DNA from: a phage
DNA length: 37,920 nt
Assembly: GCA_033178465.1 (NCBI GenBank)
Contig: GCA_033178465.1_4726.4
Strand: one strand, 5' to 3'
Position 1 is the first letter of the stretch. Each line of letters begins with the position of its first letter. The notes below the pieces were generated by a model. That model did not search any database and was not told the DNA's origin. It saw only the letters and a list, made by a program, of their open reading frames with translations. The position numbers were made by a program, and so were the translations under genes. Of the stretch, positions 1,179-32,515 are shown in pieces.

Positions 1179-1706
1179 TTATACCCAATAGTCGGCAAGC
1201 GGTTTTACCTTATTAATGGGCAACTGTACTTTACCGATGTTCTCTACATCCGCATCTGCGTAGAGAACAATTTTATCATCGTCTCTTTCCCAACGAATAA
1301 TAAATCGACCAGGAAGAAGATTACTCTGTTCAAGAGACGCAGTAACCTGCTGCGTCAAAACAGACAACCAAGCAGGCATCAATGTTGCAATATCTAAGTC
1401 ATTTGACCACTCAGCACGTTGCTCCACTGGACGTAACATACGTTCGACGGTGCGTTGAACCGTTGCGGTGATATAGCCTTTATCTTCGTCACTGATTGGA
1501 TCAGGACGAGACACAAAACGTTCAGCAGGCTTGTGGGTAATATATTCATGCAAATCGATGAGTGGTGTTGTCATAGTACTCGCTCCATCAGAATGTAATT
1601 GGGTAACCCGCAGGGTTGTCTGCATGCTATTCAGAAGCGCAAAAGCGCCATAAACAACAACGATACCAAGTACGACCAAAACAGAAATCATTAACGTGTA
1701 TTGCAT
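1179..1706 (-). CDS. Hypothetical membrane-anchored protein
   Basis: ORF 1179-1754; preferred ATG at 1706 (MQYT...) has GGGGAG 6 nt upstream; N-terminal hydrophobic segment LMISVLVVLGIVVVYGAFALL. Confidence 0.55.
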   Translation of the reverse strand: MQYTLMISVLVVLGIVVVYGAFALLNSMQTTLRVTQLHSDGASTMTTPLIDLHEYITHKPAERFVSRPDPISDEDKGYITATVQRTVERMLRPVEQRAEWSNDLDIATLMPAWLSVLTQQVTASLEQSNLLPGRFIIRWERDDDKIVLYADADVENIGKVQLPINKVKPLADYWV

Positions 1707-1774
1707 TGTCATCTCCCCTTCATACGCATCTTGAAGATCGGTTAAAAACAACAAAAGAAAAAACGATATAAAGC

Positions 1775-1800
1775 AAGGTCCTCTGATATCAGAGGACCTT
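1775..1800 (-). terminator. Intrinsic terminator candidate (perfect 12-bp inverted repeat)
   Basis: AAGGTCCTCTGA-TA-TCAGAGGACCTT; on the minus strand it is followed by a T-rich run (complement of 1741-1774); sits between gene 1808-2464 and gene 1179-1706. Confidence 0.45.
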
Positions 1801-1807
1801 GGATCAA

Positions 1808-2464
1808 TTAGCTTGCAGCTTCTTCATTTGTATCAGGTTTGCTTCCCCCTAACAAACCGTCAAACAGACCCGTATGTTTCAGGTAGAAGAGAGCGATAGC
1901 GCCCATTGCTGCTGCGCTCGTCGCCGTTAACGCAACCCCGGCACGATACTGCCATTTACGGTCAGGCTTTTGATCAAGAGCCATACGACGCATGTATTCA
2001 GCCTCTGCTTCATTCCGATGAATTTCGGATTCAGCCAAGCGGGCTAAGGTATCGCGGTCAAGGTTATCATAACGTACGTTCATGGTGGTTTCCTCTTGTT
2101 TGGAAGTTGATTGCTTAATGGATTCTTGGTCAACAGTCGTTTCAGATGGTTCAAACGGCTGGTTGTTCATTTTCTGATCTTTATTGGTCATGATAGACTC
2201 CTTCGATTTTTGAGATGAAATTGATTTAAACCATCGTGGATGGCGGTATTCTGTTTTACATGTACAGTTAAGTTTCTCGTGTAGGAAAGCGTAAAAACGT
2301 TTTGCGCCTACACGTAAGGCTTTCAGCATTACCCATCCACGAGCACTCAAACGGTGTAGCTGTTGCGGTATGTCTAGTTTCCTAGCCAAGCGAAAGTATC
2401 TTTCAATCACTTCGATAGGAAACCATTGTTGTTCCACATCGGTGAGACTGAAAGTCTTATCCAT
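1808..2464 (-). CDS. Hypothetical protein with C-terminal transmembrane segment; possible alternative internal start at 2191
   Basis: 218-aa ORF; basic N-terminal part; in-frame ATG at 2191 preceded by a strong AAGGAG 6 nt upstream; C-terminal hydrophobic stretch VALTATSAAAMGAIALFYL. Confidence 0.5.
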   Translation of the reverse strand: MDKTFSLTDVEQQWFPIEVIERYFRLARKLDIPQQLHRLSARGWVMLKALRVGAKRFYAFLHEKLNCTCKTEYRHPRWFKSISSQKSKESIMTNKDQKMNNQPFEPSETTVDQESIKQSTSKQEETTMNVRYDNLDRDTLARLAESEIHRNEAEAEYMRRMALDQKPDRKWQYRAGVALTATSAAAMGAIALFYLKHTGLFDGLLGGSKPDTNEEAAS

Positions 2465-2495
2465 GAATGAAATCTCGCTGGCTTACTTCACTTAA

Positions 2496-2512
2496 GTAAT
2501 ATAGCCGTGAAA
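2496..2512. promoter_or_regulatory. Conserved 17-mer GTAATATAGCCGTGAAA (copy 1), candidate phage promoter or operator
   Basis: Identical 17-mer recurs at 15029-15045; both copies lie in intergenic DNA upstream of a minus-strand operon start. Confidence 0.3.
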
Positions 2513-2614
2513 AATGTTGGATTAAGTTAAATACTGCAACCGTAACTGATTTTATGGGCTTTTAGCCTAAACCAATCATCTTCGGAATCATCATCTTTGA
2601 AACAGGAACCTATC

Positions 2615-3436
2615 ATGGAAAAAGTATTTGTTTGTAAGTTGTTTACTAACGGCAATAGCCAACCAATGTACCTGACCGATCCAGTTCTAGGTAATCGGAA
2701 CAGCACCGTATTCAAAGAAGCTTTTGAGTACGCTAAAAATAAAGCCGTGAGAACACTGACGTCCGATGACTGTATCAACGGTATCACGTGGGCAGAGTTA
2801 TTCGGTGATGCTGTTAGACACTTCGTTCGGGACGCAAGAAAACGGGAAATCTGTCTCACGACTATCGTTGTGCGCGAAAACGCAGAAATTTTATCAAACG
2901 TTTTGGTTGATTTTAATGACGTTTGCGTGTTTAATCCAGAGAACACGTTTGAACAATATCTTACTGCCCTGAACAACCAGCTCGGTAAAGATATTCATCC
3001 CGAATTCGCCAAGTTAACGTATCAAGTGCTTTTTAACGACGTCGATCCAAATACGAAGATCGATACCAGCTTATCGCCCCTGGTAAAGAAATACGGATCG
3101 GTTCTCGCTACGGCAACACCCACCACCGATGGCGGTTATGATATCGAATTGGATGGTCCATTAAAAGAACAAGAGCCTACTGGGGTTCGGGCGGTACATC
3201 ACAACCTCGTCGTTAAATCTGATGGATGCGATGAACATTACGCTATGATGAACGATGAAAACAATTACCGTTTAAGTCAAGCGATTGGTGTTCTACGCTA
3301 TACCGAACCAACCGTTGTAGACGATTATACATCGACAACAACACACACCACGTGTTTCATTTTCATCTATCCCAATGAAAGTGTGTACATTACCGACTGC
3401 TACGGCAACACCGTAGATAGCTTACGTCGTTATTGA
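2615..3436 (+). CDS. Hypothetical protein (274 aa from ATG 2615)
   Basis: ORF 2597-3436 in track begins with TTG; first ATG at 2615 has AGGA upstream; followed by a classic terminator. Confidence 0.6.
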   Translation: MEKVFVCKLFTNGNSQPMYLTDPVLGNRNSTVFKEAFEYAKNKAVRTLTSDDCINGITWAELFGDAVRHFVRDARKREICLTTIVVRENAEILSNVLVDFNDVCVFNPENTFEQYLTALNNQLGKDIHPEFAKLTYQVLFNDVDPNTKIDTSLSPLVKKYGSVLATATPTTDGGYDIELDGPLKEQEPTGVRAVHHNLVVKSDGCDEHYAMMNDENNYRLSQAIGVLRYTEPTVVDDYTSTTTHTTCFIFIYPNESVYITDCYGNTVDSLRRY

Positions 3437-14189: not shown

Positions 14190-14939
14190 TTAGGGATGGC
14201 GCAACATAGTCACATCCCAGCATACCAGCTTGCTTTTCTCAAGCATCTTCTGCGCGATATCGACGCTAACTCTAGGATGCATGACAGGTAGCCAACGTTC
14301 GTTAAGTACCTTCGCTTCCAGGCGTTGCTTGCGCTTATTGTAACGTACCTCGCTAACCCATGCGTAACCAAAAGGATGGATAACCCGTGGGTAGTAACGT
14401 TTAAGCATCATCAGTCTTTGCTGATAAAGTTTATCGGAACCCTCGCTAACGAATAAGGCAACCCGTTCCAACCGCTTGGTGTAATACGTTCCGGTGGTAT
14501 GATTGATCCAACCAGGAAGTGCGCGTACGTCATTTTCGAGTGTTCCTGATACGTTGTGCACTTCACCGCTATACACCGTCCCAACAACCTGATTCGCTGC
14601 GCCCACCATCGACCGTGGCAAAGCATCCGCGGTAGGATACAACCATGCGTCCCCAAGCTGCTCTCCCGACGCAAGTACGCGTAGTCCGCTTGCGCTCATC
14701 CGTTGCGGATGCTGGCTCTTATGCGCACGCAACTGCACCACAGATAAGTCCGCTGGATAGGCGACGCAACAACCTCGCTGACGGAACAGTCCAACCTCAC
14801 CATCCATCCCTTCGATCATGCTTCCTTCCGAACCGTTCCACCAACGCTTAACCTTCACGCATTCCGCTTGCACAGCCTCAGGCAACGTTAGATAATCGTG
14901 CTCGATAAACACCACATCAAAAATTAATTCATTGTTCAT
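14190..14939 (-). CDS. Hypothetical protein (249 aa), first gene of the small-gene cassette
   Basis: ATG 14939 with AGAGGA upstream; immediately downstream of the AT-rich regulatory region. Confidence 0.55.
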   Translation of the reverse strand: MNNELIFDVVFIEHDYLTLPEAVQAECVKVKRWWNGSEGSMIEGMDGEVGLFRQRGCCVAYPADLSVVQLRAHKSQHPQRMSASGLRVLASGEQLGDAWLYPTADALPRSMVGAANQVVGTVYSGEVHNVSGTLENDVRALPGWINHTTGTYYTKRLERVALFVSEGSDKLYQQRLMMLKRYYPRVIHPFGYAWVSEVRYNKRKQRLEAKVLNERWLPVMHPRVSVDIAQKMLEKSKLVCWDVTMLRHP

Positions 14940-15190
14940 TTAAAAAGATCCTCTGTTTCACGTTAATTAAACAACGTATTGATTTCTATTCGACAACAAT
15001 ACGAACATTGTCCGTATGCATCATAGAGGTAATATAGCCGTGAAAGGATTTGTGTTACAGAAAGGGTTTTGTTGTGTTTTAAGAAGGGATGGATTTAGAA
15101 GAGGTGTTTCAAGGAAGGTAAACGAGGATGGTTATTTTAATTTAAGTAAGTAAGATGTTATCTGTATTTGTTAAAAGTGTATTGTCCATG

Positions 15191-15254
15191 TTATCTTGTT
15201 TATCTTAGGTTTAATCGTTTTATCTTTGTATGTTTAAGTTGTTTTATTTATCTT
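15191..15254. repeat. Iteron-like TTATCTT heptamer repeats (4 copies)
   Basis: TTATCTT at 15191, 15200, 15220 and 15248. Confidence 0.4.
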
Positions 15255-15738
15255 GTTTGTATATTTAAATTAAATCAATAAGCGTATCTTCAAAACAATG
15301 GATAACATGTGTTTACTACCTTAATGGTAACACATGTCATCTGTGCATTACACTCCGTTATCACTTCGTTACATGCTTATATGTTGGATAACTCAAAAAA
15401 CCATTTGTGATACTCTTCTTCACGTTGTTCATCAGAGTATCTCGTCTATACTCATTGCATTCGTATACGACATAACCGTTATACGCTAACGCTACGCTTA
15501 TAGCTTGATAACTCTAAGGATAAAAACATAAACTCGCTTCGCTCGTTTAGTTTTTCTTTTTCTTAGAGTTATCCTGTTGCTCGTCTCTAAAGGACTTCGC
15601 TCCTCCCCCGTCCCCCGAAGGGGCCGAGGTCGTGGAAATTTTACTTTCCAAATACATTTACAACATCTGTAAACTTTTACTCCAGGTACTTAATCTTATC
15701 ATTAGAAATTATAAAGAGAAGAATAAACACAAACATAA

Positions 15739-15763
15739 ACCTTCCCCCGACCCAACAGGGAAG
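15739..15763 (-). terminator. Intrinsic terminator candidate after gene 15783-16676
   Basis: Stem CCTTCCC / GGGAAGG with 11-nt loop; on the minus strand it is followed by a T-rich tract (complement of 15721-15738). Confidence 0.45.
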
Positions 15764-15782
15764 GAGGAAGGGAGAGATTAAA

Positions 15783-16676
15783 TTATTCGGAAACGTTGTA
15801 ACCGAATACGGCTTTACCGTAGGTGTGGGTACCGTCAGCTAACGACACCACTAGCACATGGTTGTATGTGGCGTTAACACCCTTGTCGGTAGACTCGGTG
15901 GTAGCACCGTTATAGACAAAGGTAGCTGTTTGCAGATTGGCTTTCAGCTCGGTGATGATCTCCTCACTTACACCCGTCTGCTCTTTGATCAGCGTAGTCA
16001 GGTTACCTGCCAGGGTATCATCGATCTTGGTTTCATTACTGGTAATCGCCTGTAAGCCTACAGTGTAGGTGCTGAAGTCTAACGGATAGGTTAACAGACG
16101 TGCTGACGTTTTGGTACCATCGCCTTCATCAACGTAGGTTAAGTTACCCAGGTTGGTAACCTTGATGATGTTAGCCAGATCCAGCGTGGTGTTATAAACT
16201 TTAACTTGAACAGAACCATACCACGCCAACGAATCTTCTTTGGCTTCCAGGGTGATCGTCTGGATACCATGATCGTCGAAGGTAACAGGATTAGCTAACG
16301 TATCGGCTTTGATGTCTTTCGCTTTATCCAGGAACTTCTCACCGGAAGGCGTGATCATACCGTAGCGTTGAGCTACAAGGTCAACCACATCACCGATGGT
16401 GGTGTTCGCTTCAACGTTAACACGTACAGCGATCTTCTGGAACCACTTAGCCAGATCCAGACGATGGTAGGTAACATCGCGTTCATTGAAGTAAGGGGTA
16501 CCTTCACCAGGGCTAAGCGTTAAAGTTGCTTCTGGAGCAGAAGCGCTTTTGGATTTAAGAACGTATTTAAGATCACTGTATTGGAAGCTGGCACCAGTGT
16601 CGGCGTTGAGCTGGTTGATCTCATCAACGATAAGTTGCCAAGGTGTTTTTAAAGTAAGTGAAACTTGAGTTGCCAT
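15783..16676 (-). CDS. Paralog-family protein (297 aa), probable virion structural protein
   Basis: ATG 16676 with GAGGT upstream; shares the motifs TYHRLDL, LVAQRYGM and SLAWYGSVQV with the tandem paralogs at 28896-32515 and with the 180-aa protein; moderately optimised codon usage. Confidence 0.65.
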   Translation of the reverse strand: MATQVSLTLKTPWQLIVDEINQLNADTGASFQYSDLKYVLKSKSASAPEATLTLSPGEGTPYFNERDVTYHRLDLAKWFQKIAVRVNVEANTTIGDVVDLVAQRYGMITPSGEKFLDKAKDIKADTLANPVTFDDHGIQTITLEAKEDSLAWYGSVQVKVYNTTLDLANIIKVTNLGNLTYVDEGDGTKTSARLLTYPLDFSTYTVGLQAITSNETKIDDTLAGNLTTLIKEQTGVSEEIITELKANLQTATFVYNGATTESTDKGVNATYNHVLVVSLADGTHTYGKAVFGYNVSE

Positions 16677-16721
16677 TTTCTACCTCTATGGTTGTTACAT
16701 CACTCTCAAAAGATGTAAGTG

Positions 16722-16750
16722 TTTACAGAAATTAATATATTTTATATTAA
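16722..16750 (+). promoter_or_regulatory. Sigma70-like promoter candidate for gene 16819-17361
   Basis: TTTACA (16722-16727), 17-nt spacer, TATTAA (16745-16750); about 60 nt upstream of the ATG. Confidence 0.35.
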
Positions 16751-16818
16751 TGTAAATAATATGGAGAACGACTCCGAATCTCCTTTTCGACCATCAAAAA
16801 ATCAGAGGACACACAATC

Positions 16819-17361
16819 ATGGCCTTAGACTTTAACAAAGCAGCGAAATCCCTTCTGCTTGATCTTATCAACACCAAAGCGACCCGCACGCTGACCGAAG
16901 AAGAACTGCAGTTCGGTACTCCGGCGGCATCTTCCGAACATTCTAAGAACACCGTTATTCAGCTGGATGCTGCAGTTGGTGCAGAAAACCTGCAGGGTAC
17001 TCAGCAGTTCTACTACGATCGTCTGGCTCTGTCCGACGTTTTCGCTGATGTAACTGGCGATGTTACTTTCGAACTGCCGCACGGTACCGACAGCATCCAG
17101 GCTTCTGAACTGGTAAGCAAGCTGGTCACCAAATTCGGCCTGGCTTCCCTGAACGGTGAAATCAAAGAAGAAACCTTCCAGCTGTCTGCAGGTACTGTTG
17201 CTCAGGTAACTCTGAACGCGATCGAGAATGGCATGGTATATACCGGCACTCTGCAGGTTGCTCTGACCTATGCAGCAGCACCGAAAGATGACCTGGCAAC
17301 CGTTCTGGCGGATAACGTAGCCGATGGCTTCGTGAAACCGACCGTTAGCGTTGTTGGCTAA
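16819..17361 (+). CDS. Highly expressed small paralog-family protein (180 aa), probable major virion component
   Basis: ATG 16819 with AGAGGA upstream; strong bias to CTG, CCG, GGT, AAC and TTC codons (the most host-optimised gene in the window); contains family motifs FYYDRLAL, LVTKFGL and MVYTGTLQV. Confidence 0.75.
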   Translation: MALDFNKAAKSLLLDLINTKATRTLTEEELQFGTPAASSEHSKNTVIQLDAAVGAENLQGTQQFYYDRLALSDVFADVTGDVTFELPHGTDSIQASELVSKLVTKFGLASLNGEIKEETFQLSAGTVAQVTLNAIENGMVYTGTLQVALTYAAAPKDDLATVLADNVADGFVKPTVSVVG

Positions 17362-17560
17362 TAAGCACATAGAGCAATAGTATGGGTTTTGTACAGCTCG
17401 GCTATTGCTCTTCTACAATTTGGTTGTAACAATCTGCGTGGTTGCACGCTTATCTTTCTCATTGAGCGCTTCGTATGAAGCGTGGTGTTGAAAGGGTTGT
17501 GGATCTCCTCAAGCGGCCAGGGACCCAGACCAACCTGAATAAACACGAACACCTATTAAG

Positions 17561-17592
17561 CCCCTCCTCATCCGTTATTGGGTGAGGAGGGG
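17561..17592. terminator. Conserved GGAGG-rich hairpin at convergent junction
   Basis: Perfect 10-bp stem CCCCTCCTCA / TGAGGAGGGG with 12-nt loop; between stop 17361 (plus) and stop 17656 (minus). Confidence 0.45.
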
Positions 17593-17655
17593 TCTTATAC
17601 GTCTTTATGCGTTCCGTTCGTTCTGGAGCGTTTTAGGACGGTTTACTGCAAGGTT

Positions 17656-18291
17656 TTATTCAACACTGAAACCGTTCAAACAGATGGCTTCATAACGCTT
17701 ACGTTCACGACGTTTACGCGCCTGCCAGCCGTAAATGAACTTCTCGTCTTTCTCACGACGTTCCGCTAATTCGATGTAATAGGTGCTCTGCATGTCCAGC
17801 ATCGCATCGATGAGATAATCCTTACCGGTTGCGCCACGCTTAGCGATGTAGGCATCAAGAGCCGCCAGTGATTTGGGACCCATTGCACCATCGGCGTCAA
17901 TATCTTTCCAGTAAGTTTGACGGTTGTTCATGACGTTCAGGTAACGCTGAAGGTTCTTAACCGCAACCGTTTTACCTGCATTGATACCCAGGTCAAAGAG
18001 ACGGTCAGCTAAAAACACAGAACGTTTCATGACTTCGTCAAGTTTCATCTTATCCCAGAAGTGAGTCTTGTAGATAAAGAACGCCATTTCCGTGGTAAGG
18101 TTACGCATGTTACCGTTCCAGCCGAATTTCGTTTTCAGCGTGGTTTTATATTGGTTTGCTAAAGCTTGCGTAATGCCATGGTTCGTACATTTTCCGCTAT
18201 CATCTGGGTCATCAATATACCCGCCTTCAACATCGGTTTTGTCGCGGATGATAAATTCGCAGGTAAAATCTTTTTCAGTAATTTTAGCCAT
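17656..18291 (-). CDS. Endolysin, GH108-type muramidase-like with probable peptidoglycan-binding C-terminus
   Basis: N-terminal VEGGYIDDPDDSGKCTNHGIT matches the conserved EGGY..D..D.G..T..GIT motif of GH108 phage lysozymes; ATG 18291 with GAGGT upstream. Confidence 0.7.
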   Translation of the reverse strand: MAKITEKDFTCEFIIRDKTDVEGGYIDDPDDSGKCTNHGITQALANQYKTTLKTKFGWNGNMRNLTTEMAFFIYKTHFWDKMKLDEVMKRSVFLADRLFDLGINAGKTVAVKNLQRYLNVMNNRQTYWKDIDADGAMGPKSLAALDAYIAKRGATGKDYLIDAMLDMQSTYYIELAERREKDEKFIYGWQARKRRERKRYEAICLNGFSVE

Positions 18292-18302
18292 AGGAACCTC
18301 TA

Positions 18303-19412
18303 ATGGAGTTACGTGTTTGTAAATGTTGCGGAGTGGAGAAATCTATTATTGAGTTCAAACCTACCACATCCGGGTATTACACAAGAACGTGTAAAAAGTG
18401 TTTGGTGGCATACAAGAAACAATGGAGGAAACTCAACCCAGATAAAGAACGTGCACAAATCAAACGTTATATGGAGAAATGTAAAAACAGAACAGGAGAT
18501 GTTAAGCTGGCTTACATCAGATCGTTGCAACCGGCGCTGCGTGTTAAGGCAAAAATAGACTACCCTGAAAATATTCTTCTCTTACATTGCTTTAAATGCG
18601 ATGGAGTTAAGCCGGTGGATAGTTTTGCTTTGGCTGCTGCTAGACCAACCGGTAGGTCGAATATTTGTCGAGCATGTTTGCAACAACACACCCACAACAG
18701 GAAATATCTCCCTACGGAACAGTTTTATCGGTGCCAACGTTGTGGTAAAACGAAACCAGCCGATCAATTTAGAGATCGATCCTCTGTGATTCGTGGAAAA
18801 CATTCTTACTGTTTAGATTGTGAAAAAGACGTTAAAGAAGAATTGTTGCGACGCAGAACTCCTGAATATCAGATTGAGAAACTAAAAGAGAAAAGTGTAT
18901 TGCTTGCGTGTAAACATGGACTGGATCCGGATAAGCTCTGGAAGAAATGCTCGAGTTGCGGCGAGATAAAACGACCATCCGATTTTTCTCGCAATTGCCG
19001 TGCAATAGATGGATACCAGTCTATTTGTAAACACTGTCGCTCGGCCAGTAGCGAAACATTCGCTGGATTCAGGAGACGTATCCATGCCGCCGTCGGTCAT
19101 GCGACGACCGTTGGTAAACTAACACGTCCTGATACATGCGAAGAGTGTGGCTGTAACGCATACACTGAGGCACACCATGACAACTATCTTAAACCTTTCG
19201 ATGTTCGCTGGTTATGCCGTAGCTGCCATCGTAAAGTCCATTTGAATTACGTATTTGTTGAAATACGTTATTTCAAGGAAAAAGGTTTAACGGTTGAAGA
19301 AGTTGTGCGTCGAGCTTACCCTGACGCTTTTGATTGGGTGGTGGTTAACCCGGAAGATAAGAATGCGCTAGTTATCGTCCGAGTACCACCACAGTTACGA
19401 GAGTTAGATTAA
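18303..19412 (+). CDS. HNH endonuclease with four N-terminal zinc-ribbon-like repeats (homing-endonuclease-like)
   Basis: C-terminal CEECG...HHDNY...WLCRSCHRKVH HNH motif; four repeats of C-x2-C-G-x2-K-x4-F...C-x2-C; visibly AT-richer than neighbours; opposite orientation to both flanking genes; start only 11 bp from the endolysin start. Confidence 0.7.
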   Translation: MELRVCKCCGVEKSIIEFKPTTSGYYTRTCKKCLVAYKKQWRKLNPDKERAQIKRYMEKCKNRTGDVKLAYIRSLQPALRVKAKIDYPENILLLHCFKCDGVKPVDSFALAAARPTGRSNICRACLQQHTHNRKYLPTEQFYRCQRCGKTKPADQFRDRSSVIRGKHSYCLDCEKDVKEELLRRRTPEYQIEKLKEKSVLLACKHGLDPDKLWKKCSSCGEIKRPSDFSRNCRAIDGYQSICKHCRSASSETFAGFRRRIHAAVGHATTVGKLTRPDTCEECGCNAYTEAHHDNYLKPFDVRWLCRSCHRKVHLNYVFVEIRYFKEKGLTVEEVVRRAYPDAFDWVVVNPEDKNALVIVRVPPQLRELD

Positions 19413-28895: not shown

Positions 28896-29801
28896 TTATG
28901 CTACATATAACGTTAGATAACCATCGATGAGCGTATTCATCACACTGAGTTGGAGTACGACAGCTTTACTAACATCCGTACGTACACCGAACGGTAGTGT
29001 TTTGAATTGCTCTGGATCGGCTATTACTTGCGCATTCTGCAAGTTGAGCGGTCCAGGCACTGCTGACAGTACCCAGCGATCGTTGACCATAAGGCCGTCG
29101 ATCTCTTCAGAGAGACCCAATTGCAGTGTGTTCATTTCTGCGATTAGTGCCTCCGATTGCGTATCGCCCGAGGTTAACGTATATCCATCGGTAAGTGATG
29201 CCAGAACACCAGCAGATACGAACCAGTTGTACGAAACAATAGCGCCTGGGAGTTTACTGCTATCTCGATCGATGATATAATTCAACCCAGCCAACATATT
29301 GTTGCGAACGAGGTTGTTGAGGTCGTTATGTCCTGAGGTTAACTCAACAAGTAACTGACCAACCCATACTTGGTTACCGGGTTTAGGTGTTATCACAACC
29401 TGTATCGGTGACTTGGACTTATCCAGATCCGCGTCGACAATCTCGGTTTTGTTGAGAAGGATACCGTACGTCGATGCTAAGACAGGTAATATCTCAGAGA
29501 CCTTGGTTAATGCATCTAAGGTTTCGATCTCGATGGGCCAGTGGTGCTGTCCGCCAGACCAAGTACCCAGTTTACCAAGATCGATGCGGTTATAATAGAT
29601 GTCGACAGAGTTCACCAGCCCTGAACCCGGTTGGGGATGCACGGTTAACTTGCTGTTACGCTTGTACCCTGTGCTTTCAGAAGCTTCACCGATAACCAGT
29701 TTATCCAGCGTTACGCCTCGAGCATCGAAATCGCTATGCTTTCGAATCAGCCGAAAGAGGATTTCTTTCGATTCTAACCCCAGGATTTCACTGTACTCCA
29801 T
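28896..29801 (-). CDS. Paralog-family protein (301 aa), probable structural
   Basis: ATG 29801 with AAGGGG upstream; family motifs YYNRIDLG, LASTYGILL and VWVGQLLV. Confidence 0.65.
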   Translation of the reverse strand: MEYSEILGLESKEILFRLIRKHSDFDARGVTLDKLVIGEASESTGYKRNSKLTVHPQPGSGLVNSVDIYYNRIDLGKLGTWSGGQHHWPIEIETLDALTKVSEILPVLASTYGILLNKTEIVDADLDKSKSPIQVVITPKPGNQVWVGQLLVELTSGHNDLNNLVRNNMLAGLNYIIDRDSSKLPGAIVSYNWFVSAGVLASLTDGYTLTSGDTQSEALIAEMNTLQLGLSEEIDGLMVNDRWVLSAVPGPLNLQNAQVIADPEQFKTLPFGVRTDVSKAVVLQLSVMNTLIDGYLTLYVA

Positions 29802-29816
29802 TTAACACCCCTTAGG

Positions 29817-30701
29817 TTACGGTAGGATTTCTGCGCCCGTCGGGCCTGCCTTACGAGCTTCCAACGCACCAAGGTCGTATTTCAATGTCAGCGTATCGTT
29901 GGTAGTATAAAGGTTGTGGTAAGTCGAAATCAGATCGGTAACCTGCGCACCGACGATTTCGTTCATGTCGAAGGCCGAACCTTGACCATCATCAGCACGA
30001 ATGATTTTATCGCCCGCAGAGACCATCCCAATTTCAGAAATAACCGCGTACTCTTCACCACCTTCGGTGAGTTTAGCCACATTGAGATATTCGTTAATAT
30101 CCCACGGCGTCCAAACCAAAGAGACTTTACAGCTGTAGTCGTAGTACTCTCCGGTCGCTACCAGAATTCCGGTTGTTGGAATATCTGGTCGGGTGGGGTT
30201 GAGGTTTGCGTCGGTTGGATGCCATTCGATGGTCTGAGCGACGCCGTCGACGTATTTGGTATAACGCATGGAGCGGACAACGTTATCGAAATCGATGCGA
30301 CGACCGTAATAACAGATATACTTTTTACCGCTTTCCAGTGTCTCAATACGACGTAACCCAAATTTAGCGCGTTCGTCTGTGGTCAAATCGTTACCAACTT
30401 CACGCATCACGAACGGCTTGATTTTCCACGGTGAAAGATCGCTTGCTTCGTGAGCGATCGGCATCGAGGAAGGGATACCGTTAGCGTTGCGGATAAATTC
30501 ATGACCTTGGTTGCCGATACAGAAGTAACGTACAGCAGGATTACCCTCGGGGTAAACCTTTGATTGAATCTGAAGCTTTTCATTCAAGGTGCTGTGTTCT
30601 TCCCATGCATGAGGAAGACCGAGCGTAAGGTTAGTTTGTACTTGACCGCCGATAATCGTACGGACGATACGATCGGTAGCACGGATTTGTGTAGAAGCCA
30701 T
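29817..30701 (-). CDS. Hypothetical protein (294 aa), possibly a divergent member of the paralog family
   Basis: ATG 30701 with AGGAAA upstream; weak family-like motifs YYGRRIDFDNV and VSLVWTPW at similar spacing; membership uncertain. Confidence 0.55.
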   Translation of the reverse strand: MASTQIRATDRIVRTIIGGQVQTNLTLGLPHAWEEHSTLNEKLQIQSKVYPEGNPAVRYFCIGNQGHEFIRNANGIPSSMPIAHEASDLSPWKIKPFVMREVGNDLTTDERAKFGLRRIETLESGKKYICYYGRRIDFDNVVRSMRYTKYVDGVAQTIEWHPTDANLNPTRPDIPTTGILVATGEYYDYSCKVSLVWTPWDINEYLNVAKLTEGGEEYAVISEIGMVSAGDKIIRADDGQGSAFDMNEIVGAQVTDLISTYHNLYTTNDTLTLKYDLGALEARKAGPTGAEILP

Positions 30702-30717
30702 GTCTTTTCCTATTTAA

Positions 30718-31569
30718 TCAGTTGTATTGCATCAACAGGATACCGCCGTAGTTCGTGCAGTAATCTTGGCTAAGCGTAACGATAACAGCGTTAGCAAACG
30801 CAGGGTTAACAGGATAACCCTGTGCGATAAGTTCTGTTGTTTTACCGGTCGCGAGCACGGTGGCTCCGTAAAGGTTGTTTTCGTCTTCACGGCCGTTATA
30901 AACCCATGGGGTTGGTGCAACGTTGTTGAATAAGCTAACCAATGCGCTTAAGTTACCGCCAACTTTTAACCCAGCAAGATCGGAACGGATCGCCGTACAG
31001 TCTATAGCGTAACTGTAGACCAGTGCTTGGATACGATTTGCGGTGTAGTACGGGAAATTGAGACCGGTCATCACCGAAGTCTTCATCATCCCCGCAATAT
31101 CGTGGGCACTATCGAGGAGATAGAACGTAACACTTCCCGTCCAAGCCAATCCGGTTGTTTTCAACTCTACGGTGTGAGGGAACGGATATTCATCACCTCG
31201 TACAATCGGAGAATCGACGCAGCTATCCTGATCGATAACGATTCCGTACGTTGATTGAATCAGAGGGATAAGATCGTGCGTCGTTTTAACCCCAGCATCG
31301 ATAGCAAGCTTCGGTTCCATTCCCAAGAAGAAGTCTTGAATAGGGATACGATCGTACCACACGTAGCTGCTTTCACGGTATTGTGCTGGTGTTACTGTTG
31401 CCGAAGGCGATACCTTAGCGCGTGTGTTCCGTTTATACGCATGGTTTCCGTTTTCAGCAACATCCGTGATATCAAGTGCATCGAAGTTAAAGTCGAAGTC
31501 AGGATTGGCCGCCTGAATAAGTTCAGCGACCAGTACTTTAGGACTTTTGTTTAACAATTTCTGACTCAT
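30718..31569 (-). CDS. Paralog-family protein (283 aa), probable structural
   Basis: ATG 31569 with AAGGAA upstream; motifs WYDRIPIQDF, LIQSTYGIV, GLAWTGSVTF and DYCTNYGG. Confidence 0.65.
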   Translation of the reverse strand: MSQKLLNKSPKVLVAELIQAANPDFDFNFDALDITDVAENGNHAYKRNTRAKVSPSATVTPAQYRESSYVWYDRIPIQDFFLGMEPKLAIDAGVKTTHDLIPLIQSTYGIVIDQDSCVDSPIVRGDEYPFPHTVELKTTGLAWTGSVTFYLLDSAHDIAGMMKTSVMTGLNFPYYTANRIQALVYSYAIDCTAIRSDLAGLKVGGNLSALVSLFNNVAPTPWVYNGREDENNLYGATVLATGKTTELIAQGYPVNPAFANAVIVTLSQDYCTNYGGILLMQYN

Positions 31570-31579
31570 TGTTTATTCC

Positions 31580-32515
31580 TTAGCCTTGTTCTTCTGGAGA
31601 ACGACCCTGGAGGCTTGCGGTATGTCCGTCGACGTTGTAATAGAAAATCAATGGACCGCCGACGGCAGTACAGTAGTTTTCATCCAGACCGATCTCGATA
31701 CCGTATTGGTAACCTGCTCGTGCTGGAATACGTCCGCCTAACTCGCCGTTGAAAGCCACTTTAGCGTTATACAGGTTATACGGTGCGATGTTGTCGTCTA
31801 ATACCCAACGATCGGCGGTCATTTCAGCCAGAAGATCGGCGACCACCACATCGCTAATGACCGTACCTGTTACCAGCGAAGCCAGCAGTTCACCGTAATC
31901 AGAAGTATCACGACTGTAACTGTAGATCTCACCGCTGGCACGTACGCCTTGACCGAAGAACTTAAGACCGTCCAGTTCCTTGATTGCGATAATATCATCA
32001 AGATTCGGTACACGCGACTTCATCAAGATACGAACACTTCCCGTCCAAGCCAGGCAATTAGATGCGACACGAAGCAATTGTCCGTTAACGGTATCCCAGT
32101 TAAGTTCGTCGTTGACAATTTCTTCTGCGGTAAGGCCGAGACCGAAACGTTCTTTGATGATAGGCCAGATATCACGCATCTTGGTGGCGTCTGGTGCATC
32201 GATAAGAATAGGTGCTACGTTACGCAGATACGCACCGATGTTAATACGATCGTAATACAGCGTCGTCGAACCTTCGTAATCGTCTAACTCAGTAAGCTTA
32301 GCGGTTGCTGTCGCCGTAATCTGGGTGTCGCGCTCGTAGGCGCTTTGGTTGGTGGTTGGTGTTCCTAAAACCAATAATTCAGGGGTTAGAACATGCTCTC
32401 CGTTCTGAGGTGGGTTATCGTGGTTGATAAGACCATACACGAGATCGGATGAGGGTAAAGAGACGTCGACCGGGTAAAGTTCGGTGTCGTCAATAGTTGT
32501 TACCGTATCACTCAC
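31580..32515 (-). CDS. Paralog-family protein (311 aa), probable structural
   Basis: GTG start at 32515 with strong GAGGAGG 5 nt upstream; motifs YYDRINIG, IKERFGLGL, LAWTGSVRI and NYCTAVGG. Confidence 0.65.
   Translation of the reverse strand: MSDTVTTIDDTELYPVDVSLPSSDLVYGLINHDNPPQNGEHVLTPELLVLGTPTTNQSAYERDTQITATATAKLTELDDYEGSTTLYYDRINIGAYLRNVAPILIDAPDATKMRDIWPIIKERFGLGLTAEEIVNDELNWDTVNGQLLRVASNCLAWTGSVRILMKSRVPNLDDIIAIKELDGLKFFGQGVRASGEIYSYSRDTSDYGELLASLVTGTVISDVVVADLLAEMTADRWVLDDNIAPYNLYNAKVAFNGELGGRIPARAGYQYGIEIGLDENYCTAVGGPLIFYYNVDGHTASLQGRSPEEQG

Follow-up and report, generated by a model that had tools for sequence, protein, structure and literature searches.

A Short DUF7941 Gene With Codon Usage of Ribosomal-Protein Grade

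A phage contig of 37,920 nt (GCA_033178465.1_4726.4, NCBI GenBank assembly GCA_033178465.1), called the window below, carries at 16819-17361 (+) a gene for a 180-aa protein that combines the DUF7941 family's N-terminal domain with the most host-optimised codon usage of the whole stretch. The protein is the ortholog of gp23 of Escherichia phage vB_EcoM_Goslar, a nucleus-forming jumbo phage of E. coli in the proposed family Chimalliviridae. In the reading that we favour, and hold to be reasonably probable, this short gp23-type form is a very highly expressed late virion protein that builds head-to-tail filaments from the baseplate.

The codon adaptation index (CAI) was calculated with weights from 29 ribosomal-protein, tufA and fusA genes of E. 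coli K-12 (4,857 codons). The short gene had a CAI of 0.745 and an effective number of codons (Nc) of 32.9, and the 37 other open reading frames (ORFs) of the window were all less optimised, in agreement with the initial annotation, which had singled the gene out for its codon usage. These 37 ORFs had a mean CAI of 0.370 (standard deviation 0.063, maximum 0.558), which placed the short gene at z = 6.0. When the 180-aa protein was redrawn 5,000 times from the window-average codon usage, the top CAI was 0.488 compared with the actual 0.745. On the same scale, E. coli ribosomal-protein genes reached 0.64-0.84 and the weakly expressed gsp genes 0.32-0.38. The gp22 homolog at 15783-16676 ranked third in the window with a CAI of 0.542. 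An antisense ORF of 181 aa at 16825-17370 (-) was rejected as a gene and was regarded as a shadow of the sense codon bias. It stays open because antisense stops in the codon-aligned frame need TTA, CTA or TCA on the sense strand, and the short gene has a single codon of this kind, codon 3 (TTA at 16825-16827), which is the stop of the antisense ORF.

The structure of the Goslar virion was determined by cryo-EM together with quantitative mass spectrometry (MS) by Basu et al. (April 2026 preprint, bioRxiv 10.64898/2026.04.21.720040; cited below as Basu et al., 2026). In that work gp22 and gp23 were named as DUF7941 paralogs, along with eight further members (gp31, 33, 34, 86, 91, 92, 93, and 161), three of which are fused to carbohydrate-binding, glycosidase or leucine-rich repeat (LRR) domains (Basu et al., 2026). 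The copy numbers per virion, medians of label-free quantification (LFQ) by MS given in their Table S4, were 2,144 for gp23 (range 1,428-3,368; 90% peptide coverage; 12.9% of all protein molecules), 577 for gp22, 112 for gp33, 111 for gp161, 27 for gp34, 8.5 for gp31, about 5 each for gp92, gp93, and gp86, and about 1 for gp91. Thus gp23 accounts for 72% of all DUF7941 copies in Goslar, with about 2.5 copies of it for each copy of the other paralogs combined. The initial annotation had proposed one abundant major subunit accompanied by several minor, longer paralogs, and this is the pattern measured by MS in Goslar, where the orthologs share 90-99% identity with the proteins of the window.

Among 226 non-overlapping ORFs in 232 kb of the Goslar genome, five genes formed a top CAI class, namely those of the major capsid protein (MCP) gp41 (0.797), gp58 (0.783), gp214 (0.719), gp23 (0.716), and chimallin (0.691). 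The next gene had a CAI of 0.57, and the median was 0.359. The CAI was correlated with the MS copy number across 25 Goslar virion proteins (Spearman rho 0.82, p = 6.5e-7) and also across the ten DUF7941 paralogs of this phage (rho 0.82, p = 0.004). Since the CAI tracks copy number, it gives independent support to the division into one major and several minor paralogs. The ribosomal-protein-grade codon adaptation of the short gene matches the roughly 2,000 copies per virion in Goslar; a high virion copy number of the window protein is supported indirectly through its CAI, the measured value being that of the Goslar ortholog alone. The gp214 protein, with 159 aa and about 865 copies per virion, may merit attention equal to gp23.

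In a 241-kb metagenomic relative, the arrangement of the divergent pair and the endolysin gene was kept, and the short ortholog, 49% identical, had a CAI of 0.661 compared with 0.24-0.53 for its neighbours. The codon bias of the short gene appears to be maintained by selection, since so distant an ortholog is again the most optimised gene at the same synteny. A distant short-form member (P0046, locus L009) lies in another gene context and shows no codon bias of the E. coli type (CAI 0.316), a value that weighs neither for nor against.

For the Goslar ortholog, which is 94% identical, the phenomenon has been described before: the 2026 preprint contains the family, the paralogy of gp22 and gp23, the lack of the C-terminal domain, the high copy number, and the model of filaments. 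Codon usage is absent from it (the word "codon" occurs 0 times), as are tandem arrays and the family-wide conservation of the tail (Basu et al., 2026). The five-gene codon-optimised class, the correlation of CAI with copy number, the family-wide tail conservation, and the natural tandem arrays of the module that lack the C-terminal domain are new here.

Family Membership and Domain Architecture

Both ORFs of the divergent pair were found, 180 aa on the plus strand and 297 aa on the minus strand, with a 142-bp spacer between them. The motifs FYYDRLAL, LVTKFGL, and MVYTGTLQV, by which the short product had been linked to the longer paralogs, are all present in it and align with YYDR[IL], [FY]G[ILM], and [AV]W.G[ST] of the four longer paralogs, so that the motif series is indeed common to both forms. 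In the five-way paralog alignment Y66, R68, G107, and G143 were invariant, and the 180-aa protein aligned with the four ~300-aa paralogs over their first ~170 residues, beyond which it does not extend. The pairwise alignments were significant as well, with a BLASTP E-value of 7e-8 against the 311-aa paralog and of 0.007 against the 297-aa neighbour.

In Pfam, the 180-aa protein matched PF25613 (DUF7941) with E = 1.1e-20 (74.7 bits compared with a cut-off of 27) over profile positions 4-174 of 276, and the 297-aa protein matched with E = 1.9e-51 (175.6 bits) over positions 4-275; the long paralogs covered the whole profile with E-values from 1e-47 to 1e-63. The C-terminal globular domain (profile positions ~176-276) is absent from the 180-aa protein, as its match stops at position 174, and present in the 297-aa neighbour. 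The short protein consists of an N-terminal globular domain (aa 1-151, nt 16819-17271) and a tail or "linker" (aa 152-180, nt 17272-17358), whereas the 297-aa protein has an N-terminal domain, a linker, and a C-terminal domain. PHROGs keeps separate profiles for the short form (phrog_2935, 180 positions), which the 180-aa protein matched with E = 8e-21, and the long form (phrog_1037, 290 positions), and labels both as virion structural protein.

Two other assignments were rejected. Membership in the PF12699 inner-body family was contradicted by the fold result and by the lack of any PF12699 match at E <= 0.1, and membership in a pilin-like family (incomplete Ig-like pilin fold of the chaperone-usher, donor-strand type) by the Pfam and fold results.

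Fold of the N-Terminal Domain and Its Connection to the Baseplate

Single-sequence phmmer searches of the PDB with the 180-aa and 311-aa proteins gave no match. A family profile built from 33 sequences matched PDB 9XQD chain 0, "PHIKZ127", with E = 1.5e-18, and nothing else in the PDB searches rose above noise. The initial annotation had called the fold unidentified; this no longer holds for the N-terminal domain, which has the fold of phiKZ gp127, and it stands in so far as no other known fold matches. The AlphaFold2 model of the 180-aa protein had a mean predicted local distance difference test (pLDDT) score of 89.2 and a predicted template modelling (pTM) score of 0.76. Among the window paralogs, the 297-aa protein was the best match to phiKZ gp127 (phmmer E = 7e-11), and the named structural homologs in BFVD all came from phiKZ-like jumbo phages.

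The entry 9XQD shows the outer peripheral baseplate of phiKZ and belongs to the structural atlas of that phage (Nat Commun 2026, PMC13250141). It is printed as 9QXD in the Goslar preprint; the atlas paper and the PDB copy give 9XQD. In phiKZ, each of six "star lobes" has a band of five gp139 dimers ending at gp127, which is placed at the outer tip of the baseplate spokes and is touched by the outermost gp139 dimer (PMC13250141). The gp139 protein is a homolog of Goslar gp32 (DUF7208), a baseplate "spoke" protein (Basu et al., 2026). The DUF7941 family is thus structurally anchored to the outer baseplate, for one phiKZ member only. In the window, DUF7941 paralogs lie on both sides of the DUF7208 spoke gene (29817-30701), an order that mirrors the gp139-gp127 contact in the phiKZ baseplate.

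Conservation of the Tail and Natural Tandem Arrays

The tail of the 180-aa protein, DDLATVLADNVADGFVKPT, fits the family linker motif D-L ... L-x-G-[LF]-x-Y-P. G170 was conserved in at least 90% over short and long members. Across 20 orthologs, the entropy was 0.45 in the tail (aa 157-175) and 0.40 at the N-terminus (aa 1-33), compared with 1.04 in the core. In 208 module instances from ~150 diverse representatives at <=50% identity, the linker residues L159, L168, G170, and Y173 were 80-87% conserved, on par with the core motifs YxR and WxG. This conservation suggests that the tail is more than a mere linker.

An exhaustive representative search gave 3,345 DUF7941 cluster representatives at E <= 1e-3. 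The 192 proteins retrieved included 91 full-length forms, 48 short forms, and 37 tandem arrays. The short form is therefore common, as is also seen from phrog_2935 and from many BFVD matches of 148-190 aa. The tandem arrays consist of two or three N-domain-plus-linker modules and carry no C-terminal domain, and the phage locus of one of them also holds genes for a further DUF7941 protein, a DUF7208 protein, and a GH108 endolysin. Because such concatemers exist in nature, the gp23-type module can, judging from these architectures, be chained in series without the C-terminal domain. The tandem-module proteins (metagenomic P0049, P0050, P0056, and P0057; locus L010, 10001-11026) have acidic, glycine-rich C-termini with repeated GF-D and F-D-G-G motifs.

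The phiKZ protein gp126 (147 aa), encoded directly downstream of gp127, gave an alignment confined to the N-domain and stops at the point at which the tail would start. This would fit a non-propagating end unit in a phage without a high-copy short form.

Purified Goslar gp22 forms filaments by negative stain, AlphaFold 3 predicts head-to-tail oligomers of both gp22 and gp23 through the linker, and the authors propose a "cloud" made up of filaments that are anchored on the peripheral baseplate (Basu et al., 2026).

Candidate Expression Signals Around the Short Gene

In the spacer, ribosome-binding sites of the GAGG type face both divergent genes, and an AT-rich inverted repeat, TTAATATA-TTT-TATATTAA, lies at 16732-16750. 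The sequence TATGG occurs at 16760-16764, ~55 nt upstream of the ATG of the short gene, and a cTATGg-like motif was also found upstream of the Goslar genes for MCP, gp58, gp214, the sheath, and gp88. Both resemble the TATG element of phiKZ late promoters, a resemblance that we treat as a lead only. When 14900-17700 was scanned for sigma-70 promoters, 6 sites were found where 5.2 were expected, with no enrichment over shuffles, so that the scan was uninformative, which is no surprise in a phage with RNA polymerases of its own.

Between the convergent short gene and endolysin gene, a GC-rich hairpin at 17560-17593 corresponds to the annotated Goslar terminator at 17603-17637 and probably terminates one or both transcripts. 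With signals of its own in the spacer and this hairpin downstream, the short gene looks like a monocistronic unit. The sequence ATATTACCTA was noticed ~65 nt upstream of Goslar gp246 (chimallin) and ~125 nt upstream of gp214, and it resembles the phiKZ early-promoter consensus TATATTAC.

Proposed Role of the Short Form

In the proposed mechanism, 16819-17361 would be a monocistronic and very highly expressed late gene, arranged head-to-head with a full-length paralog. The N-domain of each gp23-type subunit would receive the conserved C-terminal peptide that is donated by the subunit before it. The short subunits, which could both accept and donate, would then form head-to-tail polymers, that is, long flexible filaments. 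These would be seeded by full-length paralogs at the spokes of the peripheral baseplate, and the rarer paralogs with sugar-binding or LRR domains would decorate them and widen the radius of host-cell capture. The codon optimisation would result from the need for thousands of copies per particle.

A more far-reaching version may be put forward tentatively, as a possibility that we still doubt. Here the N-domain-plus-tail module would be the minimal self-propagating polymer unit, N-domain-only proteins such as phiKZ gp126 would cap the ends, tandem proteins would be covalent oligomers, and the ~2,000 copies in Goslar-like phages would build micron-scale filaments for host capture. The codon optimisation would be so extreme because filament length is set by the expression level. 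If true, this would define a new class of virion appendage polymer, the length of which depends on expression and not on a tape measure.

Several points weigh against the filament reading. The cryo-EM maps of Goslar showed no density for any DUF7941 protein, gp23 has never been localised, and filaments were seen for gp22 only and not for gp23 (Basu et al., 2026). The MS preparation also held chimallin, ChmC, and PhuZ, and co-purification is no proof of attachment (Basu et al., 2026). Moreover, the LFQ copy numbers are good to about +/-50% only, and it is an assumption that the window phage infects E. coli or a closely related host. The TATGG promoter assignment would rest on a motif of 4-5 nt, too short to serve as evidence. 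The alignment of phiKZ gp126 is weak (hhalign probability 35%, E = 4e-4), and the model of a natural two-module protein (P0057), made to look for a defined interface between the modules, reached a pTM of 0.48 with low pLDDT in the second module, the homologs having aligned to module 1 only. The earlier reading of a structural subunit likewise falls short of full proof, in view of the missing density and the non-virion assemblies prepared along with the particles.

Alternative Explanations

The points on density and co-purification would also suit a large intracellular assembly, for example a late cytoplasmic filament or scaffold, which co-purifies with the particle and stays outside it, so that the codon bias would reflect an intracellular demand. 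According to the authors, the same CsCl preparation had captured large assemblies, and chimallin, ChmC, and PhuZ were present in it (Basu et al., 2026). In addition, gp22 polymerises alone in vitro, and chimallin, which is no virion protein, belongs to the same codon-optimised class. However, in phiKZ the homolog gp127 has been resolved at the baseplate of the virion. Paralogs carry fused domains of the receptor-binding type and are sited among baseplate and fibre genes, and within one sample the molar signal of gp23 (LFQ area per mass) was ~17-fold that of chimallin. On balance we consider such an assembly unlikely. Packaging into the capsid is another alternative: the protein might be a component that belongs to the inner body or is ejected, and it might pair 1:1 with the PF12699 protein gp58, whose LFQ area per mass of 229.70 was 0.3% apart from the 229.03 of gp23 (~2,150 and 2,144 copies). 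This near-equality may point to a stoichiometry of ~1:1, by coincidence or in a shared assembly, and both proteins are unmodelled, disordered, present in high copy, and in the top codon class. On the other hand, the 180-aa protein has no PF12699 match, its fold is that of a baseplate protein, and its gene adjoins the endolysin and tail-fibre genes, outside the gp53-58 cluster. Propeptide removal is typical of phiKZ-type internal head proteins, and the 90% peptide coverage of gp23 speaks against it. A location inside the capsid is therefore given little credence here.

The short form could also act as a chain terminator or length regulator, capping filaments made of full-length paralogs instead of being their bulk subunit. 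This role is disfavoured and seems quite improbable to us, because gp23 provides 72% of the family copies, about 2.5 for every copy of all the other paralogs together, and retains the donor tail that is conserved across the family. The tandem arrays without a C-terminal domain also imply that this domain is dispensable for chaining, and AlphaFold 3 predicts homo-oligomers of gp23. A bulk subunit of baseplate-borne filaments remains the reading that we favour.

The Locus and Its Relation to Goslar

As shown in Table 1, the gene order of the window is the gene order of Goslar, which was also the only match of the 6-kb stretch around the short gene (92.4% nucleotide identity, 73% of the query); the pair thus comes from a chimallivirus and is set among baseplate and fibre genes. 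The amino acid identity to Goslar was 93.9% for the gp23 homolog and 90.2% for the gp22 homolog, compared with 95.7-99.7% for the flanking structural proteins, and synonymous divergence was similar. From these identities, the window phage appears to be a different member of the same genus. They also suggest that the gp22 and gp23 homologs evolve faster as proteins than their neighbours, as expected of exposed, host-facing components. By sequence, five DUF7941 paralogs can be counted in the window compared with 10 in Goslar.

Table 1. Features of the window and codon-optimised genes of Goslar.
Feature	Position	Strand	Basis
DUF7941 gene, short form, 180 aa (Goslar gp23 ortholog)	16819-17361	+	ORF, PF25613, phrog_2935, synteny
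DUF7941 gene, full length, 297 aa (Goslar gp22 ortholog)	15783-16676	-	PF25613, synteny
Divergent intergenic control region, 142 bp	16677-16818	.	sequence
GC-rich hairpin between the convergent short gene and endolysin gene	17560-17593	.	inverted repeat I1, sequence
Terminator-like hairpin just downstream of the 297-aa gene	15743-15762	-	terminator scan
GH108 endolysin, counterpart of Goslar gp024	17656-18291	-	gene order
Counterparts of Goslar gp031-gp034	28896-32515	-	gene order
DUF7941 paralog, 301 aa, ortholog of Goslar gp31	28896-29801	-	PF25613 E = 2.3e-56; 99.0% identity
DUF7208 gene, ortholog of Goslar gp32 and phiKZ gp139	29817-30701	-	PF23838 E = 7e-97
DUF7941 paralog, 283 aa, ortholog of Goslar gp33	30718-31569	-	PF25613 E = 1.4e-47; 98.2% identity
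DUF7941 paralog, 311 aa, ortholog of Goslar gp34	31580-32515	-	PF25613 E = 5.7e-63; 99.0% identity
Five codon-optimised genes of Goslar (loci L001, L003, L005, L006)	Goslar record 16862-17404, 43439-45661, 63769-65091, 171003-172898, 201334-201813		

Between the endolysin gene and the gp25 homolog, the window has a 369-aa ORF at 18303-19412 (+) with Stc1, HNH, and endonuclease VII-type matches. Goslar has no gene at this position, its endolysin gene ending at 18335 and gp025 starting at 18462. With a CAI of 0.318 and a GC content at third codon positions (GC3) of 0.373, both low, the ORF looks like an inserted homing endonuclease. On the other side of the pair, ~840 bp at 14940-15782 are AT-rich (GC ~0.38) with no ORF longer than 51 aa, and Goslar has a similar gap at 14971-15826. 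Scans for tRNA genes and Rfam families over the whole window, this gene-free gap included, gave no match. The adjoining gp21 homolog is just 44.7% identical to that of Goslar, and the region appears to be a hypervariable junction.

Comparison With Known Systems

Of the external components of a nucleus-forming jumbo phage, the short gene may mark the one with the highest copy number, equal to or above that of the capsid protein. Codon adaptation alone, read from raw sequence, flagged a protein that was later the top unmodelled virion component by MS, and the CAI likewise sets apart a high-abundance class of five genes in Goslar. The conserved tail, the natural tandem arrays, and the tail-less phiKZ gp126 lead to testable predictions on how the filaments grow and stop.

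The locus agrees with that of Goslar gp23/gp22 in the protein lengths of 180 and 297 aa, the divergent layout, the endolysin and gp21 neighbours, and the lack of the C-terminal domain in the short form. It differs in the extra HNH gene nearby and in sequence, the 6-kb region being alignable over no more than 73% of its length, with 92% nucleotide identity there. In phiKZ, one gp127 is modelled per star lobe, six per virion, and no high-copy member is reported (PMC13250141). Its gp126, at 147 aa, apparently lacks the donor tail, and the gp127 and gp126 genes are co-oriented, whereas the window pair is divergent.

The same population structure is found in the PF12699 "inner body" family (Goslar gp53-gp58), where one codon-optimised paralog dominates (gp58, ~2,150 copies, CAI 0.783) beside several minor paralogs at 50-330 copies. 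That family has an unrelated fold, belongs to another Pfam family, and is located inside the capsid and ejected. Chaperone-usher pili (donor-strand, or peptide-in-groove) differ in that the window protein has no structural similarity to pilins and no chaperone or usher, the donor is C-terminal here, and the docking is predicted. The likeness is a functional analogy only, in which one subunit uses a short terminal extension to complete or bind the globular domain of the subunit that follows, and the same logic of one major subunit with minor tip or adaptor subunits would apply to the DUF7941 filaments.

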